Sequence record: NC_101837.1
Length of the DNA stretch: 64,000 bases
Source: a phage
Strand: one strand, 5' to 3'
In this document: positions 30,775 to 43,585 of the stretch, piece after piece
Numbering within the stretch: position 1 is the first letter of the stretch
How the letters are laid out: every line of letters begins with the position of its first letter
Translations under genes and position numbers: made by a program
Notes under the pieces: model-generated
Seen by the model: the letters and a program-made list of their open reading frames with translations, nothing else
Database searches by the model: none
Told to the model about the DNA's origin: nothing

Positions 30775-30857
30775 GTGTCCGTATCACGGACAGTTAGTGT
30801 CCGTATTACGGGCAGATGTGTCCGCGTGACGGACAGTAGTGTCCGTATCACGGACAG
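30775..30857. repeat. array of four tandem 19-bp palindromic iterons (GTGTCCGTATCACGGACAG consensus), 21-22 bp period
   Basis: Copies at 30775, 30797, 30818, 30839; each an inverted repeat TGTCCGT-N3-ACGGACA; flanked upstream by AT-rich palindrome-containing tract 30651-30774. Confidence 0.85.
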
Positions 30858-30931
30858 TTAATAGTATCCGTTCCATGACGAACATAAAACATACGAATCC
30901 TTATAGTACAGATATTTAAGTTTTTACTGGT

Positions 30932-31282
30932 CTAACCAGTTGTTGACATCCGAATAACTTCTTCTGGTGGCAAAACTTTGGAAAATGTGCATCTTTTACC
31001 TCTCCCTTGTGTGGATGTTTCAACCACTCCTGCACATTCTAAAGTTTTAACGCACGCTGCTGCTTTTGTTTTCTTTATCCCAACATCTGCTGCAATTTTC
31101 CTTGTGCTTGGTGTGAAGCGTGAATTTCCTCCAAGCTTATACCAGTTGTGCAGGTAGCAGTATACGATCTTGTCATACAAGTCAAGAACAACAACCTCTC
31201 CAGTTGTGTCATTCAAAACTTTTGACATAGATAGTATTTCAAGGGGGACTTTAAGATATAGCAGCTTATCCCCATCTTTCAT
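30932..31282 (-). CDS. putative helix-turn-helix DNA-binding protein
   Basis: 116 aa; HTH-like segment TRKIAADVGIKKTKAAACVKTLECAGVV; stop lies ~75 bp from iteron array. Confidence 0.45.
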   Translation of the reverse strand: MKDGDKLLYLKVPLEILSMSKVLNDTTGEVVVLDLYDKIVYCYLHNWYKLGGNSRFTPSTRKIAADVGIKKTKAAACVKTLECAGVVETSTQGRGKRCTFSKVLPPEEVIRMSTTG

Positions 31283-31329: not shown

Positions 31330-31884
31330 TTACTCCCTGCTGTCAATATCAAAACTCATTGCAATACGGTATGCCTCTTCTAATGGTAAGAGTCTTCCCC
31401 ACACATCCCAACCGACATCAAGCTGCCTGCCAAACAACTGTTGTGTGGTTCCGTGAGCATGACCGAACAGTTGGACTGATCCGTGAGGCTTTCTGTTCCA
31501 CTTTGCAAACTGGTAATGGCTCATACAGATCAAATTCTTGTTGTGGCGAAGCTCGTAATAATCTACAACCTCATGACCGAACTCTTTCACAATTCTGACA
31601 GTCGTCCTTGTGTCATGGTTGCCACGAACAAGAATAATATGTCCGTTCAACATATTTAGAATATCTGGAAGTAAGTTGTTGATATTCTTATCATTAGTGC
31701 ACGCAATATCTCCCAAGTGGAACACAGTGTCTGCAGGTGACACAACAGAGTTCCACTCGGCGATGATTCCCGCATTCATACTGTCAAGATTGTGATCATA
31801 CTGAGATCTGTGTTTTTGACATGAATCAAACTCCATGACCCGCTGGTGGAGAAAGTGTGTGTCGCTTGTTACAAAGTATTTCAT
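31330..31884 (-). CDS. calcineurin-like metallophosphoesterase (candidate RNA 3'-phosphatase/cyclic phosphodiesterase)
   Basis: Motifs SDTHF (DxH), GDIA (GDxx), GNHD (GNH[DE]); start at internal ATG 31884 with GAGGA RBS just after stop of upstream gene. Confidence 0.6.
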   Translation of the reverse strand: MKYFVTSDTHFLHQRVMEFDSCQKHRSQYDHNLDSMNAGIIAEWNSVVSPADTVFHLGDIACTNDKNINNLLPDILNMLNGHIILVRGNHDTRTTVRIVKEFGHEVVDYYELRHNKNLICMSHYQFAKWNRKPHGSVQLFGHAHGTTQQLFGRQLDVGWDVWGRLLPLEEAYRIAMSFDIDSRE

Positions 31885-31891
31885 ACATTCC

Positions 31892-32302
31892 TCATTTAAG
31901 TTTAATGCAGTTTTTAAGCTGGCGTTCCATACGATCCACAACCTTGTCTGGAACATCATGAATGCTTTTATTACCGTGGCGGTTTTCAACCACGATCACG
32001 GTATAACTATACCCATGACTGATTGCCATGTCAACATATTCCTGCACATGTTTTTCTTTTGTAAACGTATTACTTACCACGATACGGTCGTATCCCATAC
32101 GCATCATATCTTCTACGTTATCTTTGCACCATTTTGCTGCGAGTGTTACTTTACTTGCATCCCAGTTGTAATTGCCGTCATCGTCATACCAGAACATGTC
32201 GTTCTCAAAATGTGGATACAGACCCTCTAAAGATAGCGCATTTGCCAGTGTTGATTTGCCAGACCCTGGTAGACCACGCACGATATATAGCATTTTAGAC
32301 AT
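31892..32302 (-). CDS. P-loop polynucleotide kinase-like protein
   Basis: Walker A GLPGSGKST; start at ATG 32302 preceded by GGAGGG; kinase-domain-sized; adjacent to phosphoesterase and divergent from RNA ligase. Confidence 0.55.
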   Translation of the reverse strand: MSKMLYIVRGLPGSGKSTLANALSLEGLYPHFENDMFWYDDDGNYNWDASKVTLAAKWCKDNVEDMMRMGYDRIVVSNTFTKEKHVQEYVDMAISHGYSYTVIVVENRHGNKSIHDVPDKVVDRMERQLKNCIKLK

Positions 32303-32402: not shown

Positions 32403-33338
32403 ATGACAAATGAGGAACATATAATGAAGTATTTTAATGCAGACGACCTAGTTGACAAAGGTCTTGTAACCAGTAGGTATTACCCAGATCTCGGGTTAAA
32501 GATCTATAAATATGCTAGAAAAGTATTTTACAACAATTTATGGCATTTGTCCCCTCGTTTACTGGAGTGCCGAGGCATTGTTGTAGGTAATGAAGGAAAT
32601 GTTGTGGCATGGCCCTTCACAAAAGTGTTTAACTTGGGAGAAAACTCCACCAACCTGCCTGACAATAAGCTTGTGACTGCGGTAGAGAAAAAGAACGGAT
32701 TCCTTGGTGTGGTATCATCTCATAAAGGTGACCTATTGTTCTCAACAACCGGGTCTCTTGATTCTCCATATTGTAACCTTGCAAAGGAAACCATCCAAGA
32801 GCAATGTGGTAATTTAGATCTTATCAAGAAGGTTATGGGCAATGAAAACATGACATTCATGTTTGAAATTTGTCACCCTTCAGATCCGCATATTGTTCAA
32901 GAAGACCATGGCGCATATTTGATAGGTTGCAGATATAATGATTCTGGAATAATGCTACCAGAAGCAGCTTTAGATGGGATTGCCAAATACCTTGGTGCAA
33001 AACGTCCTCACACTGTGCGTGAAATCCCGTTCAGCTATGCAAAAGAATTAGCCGCAGAAACAAGGGGCGAAGGGTATATGATCCGTAAGCCTTACTACCC
33101 TTATGACCTGCAGCTGAAGATCAAGTCTCCATACTACCTGGCACGGAAGGCCGTAATGAGGGGTAAAGCTTGGAAGATTTGGGATGATGATATCTTTAAA
33201 CGTGTTGACGAAGAGTTTTACGGCATGGTAAACTTCATTCGTAACAATTACACAGAAGATGTGTGGAACTGCCTCCTGGAGCAGGAACGCCGTGAGATAC
33301 TTGACTGCTATTTCCACAACGAGGACTATATGCAATGA
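32403..33338 (+). CDS. RNA ligase, T4 Rnl1-like
   Basis: Segments LLECRGIVV, KVFNLGEN and VEKKNGFLG (Kx[DN]G nucleotidyl-transferase motif I) match my recollection of T4 RnlA; 311 aa. Confidence 0.65.
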   Translation: MTNEEHIMKYFNADDLVDKGLVTSRYYPDLGLKIYKYARKVFYNNLWHLSPRLLECRGIVVGNEGNVVAWPFTKVFNLGENSTNLPDNKLVTAVEKKNGFLGVVSSHKGDLLFSTTGSLDSPYCNLAKETIQEQCGNLDLIKKVMGNENMTFMFEICHPSDPHIVQEDHGAYLIGCRYNDSGIMLPEAALDGIAKYLGAKRPHTVREIPFSYAKELAAETRGEGYMIRKPYYPYDLQLKIKSPYYLARKAVMRGKAWKIWDDDIFKRVDEEFYGMVNFIRNNYTEDVWNCLLEQERREILDCYFHNEDYMQ

Positions 33339-33685
33339 AGAAGTTGATTGTGTGGCTGGATGACTTGAGAGATCCGTCAAATTACGGGCTCCAAGACGCT
33401 GTTTGGCTAAAGAATTCCTCCGAGTTTATAGATTTTATTAACGATAATAGAAAGCTCTACAGACGCGTTTCTGAGTGGCATATGGACAACGACCTTGGAG
33501 AGGTATTCGAAGGGTACGATTGCCTATCTATGTTGGAGGAAAAGTTTGTATTTGGTAAGCCTCCTGTAGTTGACAACGTGAAGATTTTCGTGCATACTTC
33601 TAACCCATCAGCGGCTCGTAAATTCATGCTTGCGGCTGACTCGTTTAAAAAGTTTGGAATAGAGATTAAACAAAACATCTACTGA
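33335..33685 (+). CDS. hypothetical protein, possibly flavodoxin/receiver-like fold
   Basis: 116 aa; start overlaps Rnl1 stop (ATGA); weak pattern similarity to CheY-like receiver (KKLIVWLDD...VHTSN...K) - speculative. Confidence 0.35.
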   Translation: MKKLIVWLDDLRDPSNYGLQDAVWLKNSSEFIDFINDNRKLYRRVSEWHMDNDLGEVFEGYDCLSMLEEKFVFGKPPVVDNVKIFVHTSNPSAARKFMLAADSFKKFGIEIKQNIY

Positions 33686-33693
33686 GGACACTT

Positions 33694-34455
33694 ATGCGAC
33701 GACTGATTGTTATCTCCGGTGCTGGTTTGAGTGCTGAATCTGGTATTCCCACTTTCCGATCTGGTAGCACTGCAATGTGGGAGAATTTCAGCATCGATGA
33801 GGTGTGCAACATCCACACCTTTGCCAAGAACTACTATAAGGTGCATGACTTTTACAATGCACGTCGTGTAGCTTTAGGCAGTGTTGAGCCTAACCTTGCA
33901 CATCTTCGGATCGCTGAGTGGTATTCCCGCTGGTCTGGTCGTGTGATCAACCTTACCACCAATGTAGATGATTTGCTGGAGCGTGCTGGTGTAAAACATG
34001 AAGATATTTTACATGTCCACGGGTATTTGCCAGAAATAGTCTATGAGGACGATGAAGGAAGTGACGTCATTAAGGACATTGGATACTCTGAGGTAGACGC
34101 AGGAAAGTATACCTGGGTTAAGCCTAATGTGGTGTTCTTCGGAGAAGTAGCTCCGAAGTATACAGACATGTATGACCTGTTGACTTCTCTTACGAGCAAT
34201 GATATGGTTATCCTTGTAGGGTGCTCCAACACAGTTATCAATTTTAACTGGGAGCTATTCCCTGCCTGCAATAAGGGAACAAAACTGCTGATCGTTAACA
34301 AATACGACTCACAGCAGCTAGGGGAGAATGGCATTTCACGTAGTGATATTTACCAATATGAGGATCGCGGCATCCCAGTTTGGTTTAACGGGGCGGTTGA
34401 TGCTTTCTCTGATAAAACATTCATTGAGACCGTAGAAAACTTTATGGAATTTTAA
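33694..34455 (+). CDS. Sir2-family (sirtuin-like) NAD-dependent enzyme
   Basis: Signature GAGLSAESGIPTFRSG, TTNVDDLLERAG, HVHG (catalytic His), KPNVVFFGE; no zinc-ribbon CxxC pairs. Confidence 0.8.
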   Translation: MRRLIVISGAGLSAESGIPTFRSGSTAMWENFSIDEVCNIHTFAKNYYKVHDFYNARRVALGSVEPNLAHLRIAEWYSRWSGRVINLTTNVDDLLERAGVKHEDILHVHGYLPEIVYEDDEGSDVIKDIGYSEVDAGKYTWVKPNVVFFGEVAPKYTDMYDLLTSLTSNDMVILVGCSNTVINFNWELFPACNKGTKLLIVNKYDSQQLGENGISRSDIYQYEDRGIPVWFNGAVDAFSDKTFIETVENFMEF

Positions 34456-34468
34456 AAGGAGACCTTTA

Positions 34469-35182
34469 ATGCTGAATACCAAATTAATTGACAACCTGGA
34501 AAAACTGTCCCAACCTGAAAACTACCTTTGGTCTGCCAACTGGGTGGAGAACTGGAACCGTGTGGCAGCTAAAGTGAAAAAATCATACACACCGTTCGAA
34601 TTACAGCTTAGCTTCATTGAGGAAGAGTTCAATGAAGTTTTGGAAGAGCTGGAGAAAGGTGATGGTGGAGATCACCTGCTAAAAGAGGCCTGCGATCTTC
34701 ACGTTGTCACAAGTTATGCCACTTATCTTGTTAATGACAATCACGAAAAGTGGTCAAGCCTGTTTGATAATCCACAGGGTCTTAAGTTCAAGATCGGTGA
34801 GTTCTATGATACCCTGATCGCTGCGAAAAACACACCTAAGCAAAGAGCGTCAGCTTACCGCTTAGCGGAGTTGTCAACAGCTTTGCTGTTCCAGCTTCGC
34901 GGCGATGTGTGCGGGATGATGCGTAAGGTTCTCAAATCGAATGACAGTAAGTTTGCACGGGTCAACCATCTACGGTATTCACACGGTGCCGGTGCAGATA
35001 TGCCTGCTGAACAACTCATCGAGTTGGAGATTAAAGATCTTGAGCGACGCTTTGATGGTAGATATGAAGGTTTTGTTGCTAAGGAAGAGTTCTACAACGG
35101 TAATAAAGTTATCATATTCCTTGACAGTAAAGGTAAGATCATGAAGCCTTCGAGCTTCAAGGATGTAACAGAGTATATTTAA
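34469..35182 (+). CDS. putative MazG-like all-alpha NTP pyrophosphohydrolase
   Basis: EEEFNEVLEELEKGDGGDHLLKEACDL resembles MazG E-x-x-E/D metal-binding helix pattern; 237 aa. Confidence 0.4.
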   Translation: MLNTKLIDNLEKLSQPENYLWSANWVENWNRVAAKVKKSYTPFELQLSFIEEEFNEVLEELEKGDGGDHLLKEACDLHVVTSYATYLVNDNHEKWSSLFDNPQGLKFKIGEFYDTLIAAKNTPKQRASAYRLAELSTALLFQLRGDVCGMMRKVLKSNDSKFARVNHLRYSHGAGADMPAEQLIELEIKDLERRFDGRYEGFVAKEEFYNGNKVIIFLDSKGKIMKPSSFKDVTEYI

Positions 35183-35215: not shown

Positions 35216-35554
35216 GTGGAAAGTATGCAAGTGAGGCAGATAGTTATGTACAAGCACTCTAGAGATCTTGAAAACGATGCTGTGTTTGGGGATCAGATGA
35301 AAGAGTTGGTTAAACTCATAGGCAGGATAGAGGATAAGTTTGACACTAAGATCTACATCGACAGCAAAGTCTTCAACCACAAAATATGGACAAATCTGTG
35401 TGTTGGACTACATGGAGATAAAGATGTGGTAAATTTAGTTGTAATTAAGTTCATAGTGTGGCAGAATAAAACTATAAATTATTACGATCCACACCTGCTT
35501 GTTTACCCGATAAAAGACCTATTAGATAAGGAGGACTGCAATGCCGTTATTTAA
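35216..35554 (+). CDS. hypothetical protein
   Basis: 112-aa ORF in co-directional array. Confidence 0.4.
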   Translation: MESMQVRQIVMYKHSRDLENDAVFGDQMKELVKLIGRIEDKFDTKIYIDSKVFNHKIWTNLCVGLHGDKDVVNLVVIKFIVWQNKTINYYDPHLLVYPIKDLLDKEDCNAVI

Positions 35555-35810
35555 TCTTGCTAAACCTGTAGAAGCACACCAGTTTGACGGAAGCTCTTCA
35601 TCAGTATCTGATCTGCAACGGTGGATTGATACAGGTGTGTTTACATCGTCACCTGTTCGGACCAGAGATCTTCGTCGCATGTGTGAGCTTGTAGAGCCGT
35701 TTGGTAACCTAGTCTTGTACCAGGGAGATTGGTTAGTTGACTTTATGGGAGACTGGTTGGTAATGAGTAAAGAAGAGATGTTTAAAATTTTTAAGGAAGA
35801 GGCCGAGTAA
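35541..35810 (+). CDS. hypothetical protein
   Basis: 89-aa ORF; stop overlaps ligase start. Confidence 0.4.
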   Translation: MPLFNLAKPVEAHQFDGSSSSVSDLQRWIDTGVFTSSPVRTRDLRRMCELVEPFGNLVLYQGDWLVDFMGDWLVMSKEEMFKIFKEEAE

Positions 35811-37093
35811 TGCATCAAATCAAAACAACACTGTACGCACTGAATAAAGATGGCAGCTACCAACAGTGGAAAGTATTCACGGATGGTGATAAGGTTATCG
35901 TAGAGTTTGGCAAGCTTGATGGTAAACTGCAATACAAAGAGACGATCTGCACACCTAAGAACGTTGGTCGCGCCAATGAAACTACAGCTGAGCAACAGGC
36001 CGAGCTGGAAGCGATCAGTAAGTGGGAAAAACAGGTCCGACTTGGGTACGTGGAGAGTATGGAAGATTGTGAGCAAGGTGTTGATCTTCTACCCATGTTG
36101 GTGCATGACTACCTGAAGCGTGGCAAGGCACTTAAATTACCTTGCTGGATCTTGCGTAAGTTAGATGGCCTTCGTCTACTTGTTGTTTTCCAGAATGGTG
36201 AGCCTAAATTTATTTCCCGTGGTAATAAGTCCTACCCTATTCAAGGAAAGCTTCTGGAGCAACTTCGCTCTTTCCACCTAACCACCGGGATTAAACAGCT
36301 CGACGGAGAGCTCTATATTCATGGTCTTCCTCTGCAGAAAATAGTGTCTCTTGCTAAACGGTGGCGCACACAGGAAGAAATTCAGGCCGAGATCGATAAA
36401 GACTACAAGGCAGATAAAAAACGCCGTCAGGCTGCGATTAAGGCAGGTTTAGCAACATACAAAAACTTCAACAAGATGGACATTCCTGTTGATGTTGAGC
36501 CTGTTCGTGATGATTTGCGTTACGGAGGGTACTGCAGCTACGACTTGGAGTATCATATTTTCGATATTCCTAGCGATAAGGTGTGGTGGGATCCTGAAAC
36601 AGAGTCTGGACGCTGTAAGGATCTTATGGAGGCAAATGGTGCTATTGCTTCTTTGATGCTTGATCATATTAAGGTTGTTGATGCAGAGCTTGCATACACA
36701 GTTGATCGGTGCGAAGAGTCTGTTGGTATATTTATGTCTGAGGGATATGAAGGTACCATTATGCGTAACTTCTGTGGTAAATATGAGTATGGTCAGCGAA
36801 CATCTGAAGCATTGAAATGGAAAAAGTTCAACGACGCAGAGGTGAAAGTTATTGACGTTGAGAAAGATAAGAATGATGAAGGTGTTCTTATCTGTGTTGA
36901 CAAGGAAGGTGTTGTTGTTAAAATGAAGATGAAAGGCACGCACGAGGAGCGTAGCTATGACAGGATGCAGGAAATGATCGGCAAGTTTGTCACCTTCAAA
37001 TATCAAGCAAGGACAGAAGACAACAACTACCAATTCCCTGTCGGTATCTGCGTCCGAAATGTTAACCCAGACACTTGGGAGGTGCTGGAATGA
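35810..37093 (+). CDS. ATP-dependent DNA ligase
   Basis: 427 aa; motif I KLDGLR (KxDGxR) and OB-fold-sized C-terminal region. Confidence 0.8.
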   Translation: MHQIKTTLYALNKDGSYQQWKVFTDGDKVIVEFGKLDGKLQYKETICTPKNVGRANETTAEQQAELEAISKWEKQVRLGYVESMEDCEQGVDLLPMLVHDYLKRGKALKLPCWILRKLDGLRLLVVFQNGEPKFISRGNKSYPIQGKLLEQLRSFHLTTGIKQLDGELYIHGLPLQKIVSLAKRWRTQEEIQAEIDKDYKADKKRRQAAIKAGLATYKNFNKMDIPVDVEPVRDDLRYGGYCSYDLEYHIFDIPSDKVWWDPETESGRCKDLMEANGAIASLMLDHIKVVDAELAYTVDRCEESVGIFMSEGYEGTIMRNFCGKYEYGQRTSEALKWKKFNDAEVKVIDVEKDKNDEGVLICVDKEGVVVKMKMKGTHEERSYDRMQEMIGKFVTFKYQARTEDNNYQFPVGICVRNVNPDTWEVLE

Positions 37094-42601: not shown

Positions 42602-43585
42602 ATGATGACAAAGTTAACTCTTGAGCAAATTTTAACACTAAAGCAACAGGGATACACTAATAGACAAATTGCTCGTGAATTTTTAGGCCGTGAGTCACGT
42701 GAGAGCTGGATCCGACTACAGCTTAAACGTGCACAGGAGAATATGTCAGAGATTGTAGGAGAAGCAACGGAGCGCTTCCTTGAAGAGCACAAAGGTGCTA
42801 AAGTTTGGGTGTATGATACAGAGACATCTCCAACAAACGGCTGGTTCTTTGGGCACTATAAGACCAACATTCAAACCTGCGGTATTGAAATTATGCCCTA
42901 CATGCTAACTTTCGCAGGTAAGTGGTTAGACAGTCCTAGTGTGGTTGACTGCGCTCTTCCCGATTACAAAATGTGGGATGAGGATATTCACAATGATCTC
43001 GAATTGATTCAGGATTTGTGGTATTATCTAGATAAATGTGATGTCGCAGTAGCCCACAATTCAGGTTTTGACTGTGGGTGGGCCAACCAACGATTTGCAT
43101 TTCACGGGTTGCCTCCAACAAGCCCCTACAAAGAGGTTGACACCCTTAAAATGATCAAGAAGGCATTCCGTTTGAATGCAAACACTTTGGAGTATGCATG
43201 CAAATACTTCCAACTGGCCCGACAGAAACTGATTGATCACACATTTGAAATGTGGATCAAGTGTGTCCATGGTGATCTTGAGGCATTTAAACAGATGCGG
43301 GAGTATAATGTTGGTGATATCCTGTCTCTGGAAGGACTGTATTTGCTGGCTCGCCCGTTTGCTAAGCAGCACCCAAACATGTCATTGTACTATCAAGACG
43401 AGGAGCCAAAAGTTCGTTGTCCACGCTGTGGTGGAGAACACCTTCACGAGGAAGAAGCTTTGGCGTATACTCAACTGAGTGCATTTAAAACATACCGCTG
43501 CGAAGGTTGTGGATCTGTTGTTCGTGACCGTAACAACATCCGCACCAGAGAAGAAATGAAAAACACCCTGATTCAGATAATCTAA
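42602..43585 (+). CDS. DnaQ-like (DEDD) 3'-5' exonuclease with N-terminal HTH and C-terminal zinc ribbon
   Basis: Exo I VYDTETS, Exo II VAHNSGFDCGW, Exo III YNVGD; N-terminal LKQQGYTNRQIAREF HTH-like; C-terminal CPRCG...CEGCG. Confidence 0.55.
   Translation: MMTKLTLEQILTLKQQGYTNRQIAREFLGRESRESWIRLQLKRAQENMSEIVGEATERFLEEHKGAKVWVYDTETSPTNGWFFGHYKTNIQTCGIEIMPYMLTFAGKWLDSPSVVDCALPDYKMWDEDIHNDLELIQDLWYYLDKCDVAVAHNSGFDCGWANQRFAFHGLPPTSPYKEVDTLKMIKKAFRLNANTLEYACKYFQLARQKLIDHTFEMWIKCVHGDLEAFKQMREYNVGDILSLEGLYLLARPFAKQHPNMSLYYQDEEPKVRCPRCGGEHLHEEEALAYTQLSAFKTYRCEGCGSVVRDRNNIRTREEMKNTLIQII

Follow-up and report, generated by a model that had tools for sequence, protein, structure and literature searches.

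In phage T4, tRNA repair by Pnkp and the RNA ligase Rnl1 counters the anticodon nuclease PrrC; in this system, as with anticodon nucleases and metal-independent RNases in general, cleavage leaves 2',3'-cyclic-phosphate and 5'-OH ends. In the fungal and plant pathway, Tpt1 (KptA in bacteria) removes a 2'-phosphate with nicotinamide adenine dinucleotide (NAD), and the resulting ADP-ribose 1'',2''-cyclic phosphate is opened by a cyclic phosphodiesterase. A comparative-genomics study (Iyer, Burroughs, Anantharaman, and Aravind, Viruses 2022; PMC9503650, section 3.7.3) described a sirtuin-centered, NAD-utilizing RNA-repair neighborhood, type 2, in Escherichia phage V5 and Proteus phage Mydo, and predicted that its sirtuin acts like Tpt1/KptA. 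Here, we analyzed the same neighborhood in a stretch of phage DNA of 64,000 nucleotides (sequence record NC_101837.1), referred to in its full length as the window. Four plus-strand genes between positions 32403 and 35182 encode an RNA ligase, a cREC domain protein, a sirtuin, and a MazG-like protein, and genes for a kinase and a phosphoesterase lie on the opposite strand beside them. We interpret the locus as an RNA-repair cluster of rV5-like (Vequintavirus) phages to which an NAD-consuming sirtuin is attached, a reading to which we give a probability of about 0.5. The evidence consists of gene content, coupling, family membership, conserved catalytic residues, and recurrent neighborhoods, from which we infer all of the enzymatic steps.

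The V5/Mydo neighborhood contains the same components, namely, a T4-like RNA ligase, cREC, a sirtuin, a nucleotide kinase, a pyrophosphatase of the MazG superfamily, and a calcineurin-like phosphoesterase. We found no difference of substance, and the window represents a further isolate of the genus of V5. An initial annotation, made from the letters of this DNA, had proposed an undescribed module. In fact, the module is already known as a comparative-genomics prediction: the neighborhood has been described together with a mechanism (PMC9503650), and the cREC domain was defined in another study (PMC7824862) and is now a Pfam family. Our literature search for experiments on the phage sirtuin clade or on cREC surfaced these two comparative-genomics papers only. 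What the present alignments and searches add to PMC9503650 is the class III origin of the sirtuin with its YxxR pair, the restriction of zinc-ribbon loss to a subclade, the separability of the sirtuin, and a cREC protein encoded by the T5 gene T5.084. The features of the locus are as follows, with the lengths taken from the listing of open reading frames (ORFs).

About 31330-31884, minus strand: calcineurin-like metallophosphoesterase (Pfam, PHROG 547)
About 31892-32302, minus strand: P-loop kinase, AAA_33 or polynucleotide-kinase-like (Pfam, PHROG 2071)
32403-33338, plus strand: Rnl1-family RNA ligase ORF, 311 amino acids as listed
33335-33685, plus strand: cREC domain protein, 116 amino acids
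33694-34455, plus strand: single-domain sirtuin, 253 amino acids
34469-35182, plus strand: MazG/dimeric-dUTPase-like protein, 237 amino acids
35189-35206, plus strand: intrinsic-terminator-like hairpin, a stem-loop followed by a T-rich tail
35810-37093, plus strand: ATP-dependent DNA ligase (Pfam DNA_ligase_A_M and DNA_ligase_OB_2; PHROG 114 at 2e-83)

The ORF listing and the junction sequences bore out the tight packing of the four plus-strand genes, including the ATGA overlap, from which the initial annotation had started. The ligase and cREC genes share ATGA at 33335-33338. The gap between the cREC and sirtuin genes is 8 nucleotides and that between the sirtuin and MazG-like genes is 13 nucleotides, with the ribosome-binding sites GAGGA and AAGGAG, respectively. 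Seven nucleotides past the stop of the MazG-like gene begins the hairpin, AGCCGGG-ATTA-CCCGGCT, which has 7 pairs (6 of them G-C) and a loop of 4. Because of the overlap, the short gaps, and the hairpin, the four genes look like one transcription unit, and these features support a unit that the hairpin closes. The kinase and phosphoesterase genes diverge from the ligase operon across the same intergenic region of about 120 nucleotides. A sigma-70 promoter scan of this divergent region gave no convincing promoter for the plus-strand operon, and matches were about as many as in the shuffled controls. Functionally, the cluster extends beyond the four genes, since the divergent kinase and phosphoesterase belong to it. 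The ORFs were as first described, whereas the boundaries of the cluster were drawn too narrowly and the ligase start was probably placed too far upstream. Its true start is probably the ATG at 32424, 21 nucleotides downstream of 32403, because a GAGGA site precedes it and the same start is annotated in phage inoa.

The ligase matched Pfam RNA_lig_T4_1 (PF09511) with an E value of 1e-14 (55.4 bits, cut-off of 28.3) and PHROG 562 at 2.8e-66. Its translation contains EKKNG, a form of KxNG, which we take to be nucleotidyltransferase motif I. Against TIGR02308, the T4 RnlA equivalog, it scored 38.7 bits, far under the cut-off of 242, and the Pfam scan did not detect the T4_Rnl1_C domain. Judged by these matches, the protein is an Rnl1-family (T4 RnlA-like) ATP-dependent RNA ligase below the level of an RnlA equivalog, in agreement with the Rnl1-like assignment made initially. 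The divergent kinase matched Pfam AAA_33 (1.8e-10), PHROG 2071 (7e-59), and PHROG 505, polynucleotide kinase (7.6e-10). Its likely start is the ATG that gives MSKMLYIVRGLPGSGKST, with a GGAGG site upstream, and we predict it to be a 5'-OH RNA kinase. The phosphoesterase matched Pfam Metallophos_2 (1.9e-6) and Metallophos (9.9e-6), as well as PHROG 547, phosphoesterase (2e-52). The listed ORF extends to 31989, and translation likely starts at the ATG that yields MKYFVTSDTHF. This protein is predicted to heal RNA 3' ends by removal of a 2',3'-cyclic phosphate or 3'-phosphate. In loci of the Vequintavirinae type and in Klebsiella phage ZCKP1, phosphoesterase and kinase are each syntenic with Rnl1. 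T4 Pnkp and Rnl1 offer the same set of a 5' kinase, a 3'-end phosphoesterase, and an Rnl1-family ligase, likewise in a lytic coliphage with tRNA genes. The two systems differ in that the window has a separate AAA_33 kinase and a calcineurin-like phosphoesterase in place of the HAD-type phosphatase of Pnkp; its ligase lies far below the RnlA cut-off, with no T4_Rnl1_C detected, and T4 lacks a cREC or sirtuin partner.

The 116-amino-acid protein matched Pfam cREC_REC (PF20274) above the cut-off, with an E value of 4.7e-15. Its AlphaFold2 model (pLDDT of 91) resembles the receiver domains of response regulators, so that the receiver-like fold, which had been suggested by eye, is confirmed by both Pfam and the model. 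These two sources identified the protein as cREC, as a Protein Data Bank (PDB) sequence search with the protein alone gave no significant match and a PDB profile search was likewise empty. In an alignment of 15 homologues, the acidic pocket typical of receivers (D9, D10, D51, and D53) is kept, together with HTSNP and K96. The protein thus has the profile, the receiver fold, and the acidic pocket of cREC, and no histidine-kinase partner. A cyclic-phosphate phosphodiesterase activity of cREC is a prediction from the literature (PMC7824862, PMC9503650), and one GenBank record names the gene product a cyclic-phosphate processing domain-containing protein. By its family, the protein of the window is predicted to act as a phosphoesterase on 2',3'-cyclic RNA ends and/or ADP-ribose 1'',2''-cyclic phosphate. 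Together with the ligase, the kinase, and the metallophosphoesterase, it is likely to form an RNA-repair cassette.

The sirtuin had been recognized from its motifs, and the searches agreed: it matched Pfam SIR2 (PF02146) with an E value of 3e-27 (96.2 bits, cut-off of 24) and PHROG 2162 at 9e-109, and the translation contains GAGLSAESGIPTFR, TTNVDDLLERAG, HVHG, and VVFFGE. The closest solved relatives by sequence were E. coli CobB (1s5p; 1.5e-21) and human SIRT5. All of the NCBIfam matches were to models of CobB-type deacylases, and all were below the cut-offs; the CobB equivalogs (NF040867/PRK00481) gave 104 to 123 bits, with cut-offs of 243 to 320. In an alignment of 18 phage homologues with CobB, the NAD-binding motifs, FYxxRR, TxNxD, the catalytic His109, and the FGE loop were invariant, the full series of invariant motifs being GAGxS..SG..FR, FYxxRR, TxNxD, H109-G, FGE, and GxS. 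The FYNARR of the window sirtuin is the same as that of CobB, and Y54 and R57 are invariant across the T5/rV5/phi92 clade. The Y-x-x-R pair of SIRT5 and CobB binds the acidic acyl groups of acyl-lysine, and we take it as the mark of class III. By these features, the protein is a class III (CobB/SIRT5-like), single-domain sirtuin and a predicted NAD consumer.

With CobB and SIRT5, the phage sirtuin shares GAGxSxxSGIxxFR, FYxxRR (Y-x-x-R), TxNxD, HG with the catalytic His, and FGE. It differs from them in that it lacks the four zinc-ribbon cysteines, is extended at its C terminus by about 70 phage-specific residues, and scores below the equivalog cut-offs. As the initial annotation had noticed, there is no canonical four-cysteine ribbon: the segment aligned to that of CobB (residues 111-150) contains zero cysteines. 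The ribbon cysteines are gone in all members of the T5/rV5/phi92/121Q clade, whereas more distant jumbo-phage homologues retain CxxC...CxxC, which shows the loss to be derived within this clade. Both the ribbon and the YxxR statements are read from alignments. In the sirtuin of Klebsiella phage KB57, YIHG replaces HxHG and the catalytic His is retained.

The 237-amino-acid protein had no Pfam match, and a PDB sequence search with the protein alone returned nothing significant. It matched PHROG 671, nucleotide pyrophosphohydrolase, at 1.9e-21, three of its homologues carry PF01503, and the family conserves the motifs EEExxE, ExxD, and SNDSK, of the EExxE/ExxD metal-binding type. The top matches of a PDB profile search were weak (phosphoribosyl-ATP pyrophosphohydrolase [PRA-PH] 1yvw, E value of 0.015; MazG 3crc, E value of 0.14). 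A model built from a shallow alignment (pLDDT of 69) gave phage dimeric dUTPases as the top Foldseek matches, with a probability of 0.97 to 0.99 and an E value of about 0.2. These lines of evidence, each weak or indirect, agree with one another and predict an all-alpha nucleoside triphosphate pyrophosphohydrolase-like protein (MazG/HisE/dimeric dUTPase) with a small C-terminal beta domain.

The relatives of the locus place the window by sequence identity as an rV5-like Vequintavirus. The four-gene block was 90 to 98% identical to 120 phage records, nearly all from rV5-like Vequintavirus, with Escherichia phage JohannBauhin as the best match (98.3%), and the sirtuin shared 93% identity with its counterpart in Escherichia phage V5. 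The initial annotation had called a compact Sir2 in a virulent phage, co-transcribed with RNA-repair and pyrophosphatase genes, not a textbook arrangement; the sirtuin itself is not rare in such phages, as tblastn found it in 1010 phage records, including T5 as gene T5.102. A synteny survey in related phages, which the initial annotation had suggested, was carried out on a sample of 80 sirtuin-bearing viral contigs, covering 8 kb on each side of the sirtuin, in which the ORFs were searched with the window proteins. The full set of phosphoesterase, kinase, Rnl1, cREC, sirtuin, MazG-like protein, and DNA ligase was reproduced in 10 Vequintavirinae-type loci and nowhere else in the sample. Six further loci of this type had a partial set, and in three of the six cREC was the only missing member. 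Throughout the Vequintavirinae-type loci, the sirtuin lies between the RNA ligase and the ATP-dependent DNA ligase, whose midpoint is +1.0 to +2.5 kb from that of the sirtuin. The DNA ligase at 35810-37093 is probably outside the RNA module. In Mydovirus-type loci, such as that of Klebsiella phage KB57 (locus 5001-7090), the sirtuin abuts the DNA ligase, with stop and start sharing a base, and the MazG-like gene is about 3 kb further downstream.

Other lineages carry the sirtuin next to different enzymes. In T5, a HAD_SAK_2 "Swiss-army-knife RNA repair" phosphatase (E value of 4e-20) lies about 350 bp downstream of T5.102. The T5.084 product (T5 positions 42745-43062, annotated as hypothetical) is a cREC_REC protein by Pfam (3.4e-15), encoded 13 kb from T5.102, and this type of cREC occurs in 25 of the 27 T5-like contigs that bear the sirtuin. 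We did not find an RNA ligase in T5 with the ligase profile over bases 1-50000 or in a single-sequence search of 48447-65232, the remainder being covered by tblastn organism counts. Thus, T5-like phages apparently have the sirtuin, cREC, and the HAD_SAK_2 phosphatase without an Rnl1-type ligase. These T5 partners came from Pfam scans, as single-sequence phmmer searches for partners around T5-like and phi92-like sirtuins found nothing; Pfam likewise gave no informative family in the four ORFs scanned around a phi92-like sirtuin (anhysbys). The order in giant phage 121Q is sirtuin, Nudt16-like NUDIX, cREC, one unknown gene, and PIN-PhoH, and in one jumbo-phage contig an Rnl1 gene lies 2.9 kb from the sirtuin, with a weak T4_Rnl1_C match under the cut-off (E value of 4.8e-4). 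The NUDIX pyrophosphatase of jumbo phages and the MazG-like protein of the window occupy equivalent positions in their neighborhoods. On IMG/VR contig 3300021127_000600 (4943-8711), a sirtuin relative with a zinc ribbon directly follows an NMNAT-NUDIX fusion and Nampt, and Nampt or NAPRTase occurs in 2 of 14 distant sirtuin neighborhoods. The fusion and Nampt make up an NAD-salvage (NARP2-like) pair, so that an NAD consumer stands beside nicotinamide recycling on this contig. A link to NARP3 was considered and dismissed, as the NARP3 paper deals with NadR and PnuC and has no bearing on the locus. Hence, the sirtuin recurs in several lineages beside enzymes that process RNA ends or phosphate ends or ADP-ribose. 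The tight cassette is formed by ligase, cREC, kinase, and phosphoesterase, in which ligase and cREC are the translationally coupled pair.

According to the scheme that we favor, host anticodon nucleases or other metal-independent RNases would cleave tRNA or other RNA. The divergent kinase would add a phosphate to the 5'-OH, the cyclic phosphate would be opened or removed by the metallophosphoesterase and/or cREC, and the Rnl1-family ligase would, by its family membership, seal the break. The zinc-less sirtuin would then strip the residual 2'-phosphate with NAD, yielding ADP-ribose 1'',2''-cyclic phosphate, as has been predicted (PMC9503650). This product could be linearized by cREC and degraded by the MazG-like pyrophosphatase; the equivalent positions of the MazG-like and NUDIX proteins fit such a clearance of ADP-ribose cyclic phosphate. 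Sirtuin and Tpt1 chemistry run in parallel, as each begins with the displacement of nicotinamide from C1'' by an oxygen nucleophile, after which the 2''-OH of ADP-ribose captures the acyl or phosphoryl group, which makes the published proposal of a Tpt1 analogue reasonable. The sirtuin has a fold different from that of the Tpt1 ADP-ribosyltransferase, so it is no Tpt1/KptA homologue. The fungal and plant pathway shares with the locus its proposed logic, and the analogy is that drawn in PMC9503650; an ADP-ribosyltransferase fold and a 2H enzyme there correspond to a Rossmann-fold sirtuin and a receiver-fold cREC here. The relation is at most one of functional analogy. That the sirtuin functions in RNA repair or in the handling of its ADP-ribose by-product has a little less than an even chance in our estimate, and the specific assignment of Tpt1-like 2'-phosphotransferase chemistry is doubtful.

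Several observations weigh against a role of the sirtuin in this pathway. It retains every lysine-deacylase motif, including the FGE peptide-binding loop and YxxR. Moreover, T4 Pnkp heals ends to 3'-OH/2'-OH, and if the kinase and metallophosphoesterase healed ends in the manner of Pnkp, no 2'-phosphate would be left to remove. In ZCKP1 (Stephanstirmvirinae, phi92-like), the cassette is intact without the sirtuin, in the order cREC, one unknown gene, phosphoesterase, Rnl1, and kinase, and the sirtuin is 30.6 kb away. Among Salmonella-phage records, tblastn found 14 with an Rnl1 homologue versus 289 with the sirtuin; many of the 1010 sirtuin-positive records, including most of these 289, appear to be T5-like. 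Together, ZCKP1 and the T5-like phages without the ligase indicate that the sirtuin often accompanies the cassette but can be separated from it. The MazG-like gene, whose structure model is of only moderate quality (pLDDT of 69), lies 2.9 to 4.1 kb from the sirtuin (midpoints) in related genera, so that its adjacency here may be incidental. We consider it unlikely, by a slightly wider measure than the Tpt1-like assignment as such, that the sirtuin is an RNA-acting, NAD-dependent phosphotransferase, a convergent analogue of Tpt1, rather than a lysine deacylase. Were it one, the invariant Y-x-x-R pocket would be reused for phosphate, and cREC would dispose of the cyclic ADP-ribose-phosphate together with a pyrophosphatase, which is MazG-like here and NUDIX in jumbo phages.

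One alternative is an ordinary CobB/SIRT5-type NAD-dependent lysine deacylase (deacetylase or desuccinylase) that remodels host or phage acylation, its location beside the RNA-repair cassette reflecting the clustering of early genes and no common pathway. We hold this to be possible, with odds of somewhat under one in three. It accords with CobB (1.5e-21) and SIRT5 as the nearest solved relatives, with the exclusively CobB-type NCBIfam matches, and with the invariance of all motifs across the clade, among them His109, the FGE loop, and the class III YxxR; it also accords with a sirtuin that T5-like phages carry in the absence of the ligase and that ZCKP1 encodes 30 kb away from the cassette. 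However, the CobB equivalog score of 123 bits is well short of the cut-off of 243, the loss of the zinc ribbon throughout the T5/rV5/phi92/121Q clade suggests an altered substrate cleft, and the sirtuin recurs in unrelated lineages beside enzymes that process phosphate or ADP-ribose, namely, HAD_SAK_2 in T5 and NUDIX, cREC, and PIN in 121Q. In a variant of this explanation, the sirtuin would keep acyl groups off the catalytic lysines of the RNA and DNA ligases that flank it, much as CobB deacylates the adenylating enzyme Acs. The sirtuin is always flanked by the two ligases in Vequintavirinae-type loci and abutted by the DNA ligase in Mydovirus, and PMC3102665 offers a precedent for a link between Sir2 and DNA ligase in mycobacterial nonhomologous end joining. 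The ligase link is confined to one lineage and hence is not independent evidence.

Two further explanations turn on NAD and immunity. Thoeris signals are isomers of glycocyclic ADP-ribose that carry no cyclic phosphate, which speaks against the proposal that sirtuin, cREC, and pyrophosphatase form a counterdefense against NAD-based immunity (Thoeris, TIR, or Sir2 type) in place of RNA repair, by destroying or diverting ADP-ribose-derived signals or toxic breakdown products of NAD. The sirtuin consumes NAD and would worsen its depletion, and it has neither a ligand-sensing domain nor similarity to Tad-type sponges. In addition, cREC is translationally coupled to the RNA ligase and lies near the kinase and phosphoesterase, and the ZCKP1 cassette exists without a sirtuin. 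We therefore consider counterdefense of this kind improbable, even though cREC and NUDIX are predicted to process ADP-ribose derivatives (PMC9503650), the sirtuin stands beside Nampt and NMNAT-NUDIX on one jumbo-phage contig with Nampt or NAPRTase in 2 of 14 distant neighborhoods, and NAD reconstitution by phages is an established theme (PMC13464706). Still less probable, to the point of being very unlikely, is a toxic NADase or ADP-ribosyltransferase of the ThsA, DSR, or SirTM type that serves host shutoff or superinfection exclusion. Sir2 domains do serve as NADase effectors in many defense systems (also PMC9503650), and the initial annotation had framed the sirtuin in terms of ThsA and DSR. 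With Thoeris ThsA, DSR1/2, Sir2-HerA, and SPARSA, however, the phage protein has no more in common than the fold of the Sir2 superfamily and NAD use. None of the PADLOC defense Sir2 models matched, the sole hit being negligible (E value of 0.0064, no matched stretch); we found no SLOG, TIR, HerA, macro-domain, or sensor partner in the sirtuin or the neighbors scanned, and the nearest relatives are housekeeping deacylases. The sirtuin is also kept in the early/metabolic regions of about 1000 records, mostly from T5-like and rV5-like phages, which we take to be strictly lytic. A defense-type Sir2 was ruled out on the PADLOC result and on CobB and SIRT5 as the best relatives. Likewise, the neighboring enzymes of RNA-end healing and sealing favor RNA repair over host takeover, interference with immune signaling, or superinfection exclusion, which had been the hypotheses offered initially. 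In sum, the domain calls of the initial annotation were right, and the novelty and the analogy to defense Sir2 proteins were wrong.

Further observations concern the surroundings of the RNA-repair cluster and its relatives. Between the MazG-like gene and the DNA ligase, at 35216-35810, lie two small ORFs of 112 (PHROG 7684) and 89 (PHROG 14585) amino acids that are conserved in most Vequintavirinae-type loci, and the 89-amino-acid ORF overlaps the DNA ligase start by one base. Seven tRNA genes are located 4 to 5 kb from the module in a cluster at 27580-28392. Inside this cluster, at 27825-27923 on the minus strand, ARAGORN predicts a 99-nucleotide tRNA-like gene with a four-base anticodon, atcc. 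Its equivalent in phage inoa is labeled "tRNA-OTHER," and Rfam did not report it at the gathering threshold. It could be an intron-bearing tRNA, a pseudo-tRNA, or a frameshift-suppressor-like tRNA. At 30775-30860, a unit of 21 to 22 nucleotides, GTGTCCGTATCACGGACAGTTA, is repeated four times head to tail, each copy having an internal palindrome, TGTCCGT..ACGGACA. The repeats lie in a noncoding gap of about 650 nucleotides, just past the 3' end of a DUF6945/helix-turn-helix "replication initiation protein" gene (30932-31282, minus strand), and repeat regions are annotated at the equivalent place in phage inoa. Iteron-like in appearance, they could mark an origin of replication. Finally, in 18 to 25 records named "Campylobacter phage" (host C. 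jejuni; e.g., MG065655), the block is about 97% identical to that of rV5-like phages of E. coli, and this host assignment looks doubtful.

The locus adds little as a discovery, since both it and its domains, as well as a hypothesis on its mechanism, had already been published or entered in Pfam. That the sirtuin can be separated from the ligase cassette should temper the expectation of Tpt1-like chemistry and keeps the reading as a plain deacylase alive. The locus is a compact and tractable example of the predicted chemistry, with E. coli K-12 as the host and close relatives in the BASEL collection. If the phosphotransferase proposal were true, it would represent new chemistry for the sirtuin superfamily, extended to the phosphates of nucleic acids, and a new branch of phage counterdefense against tRNA-cleaving immunity, and it would explain the presence of a sirtuin gene in about 1000 sequenced phages, T5 included.

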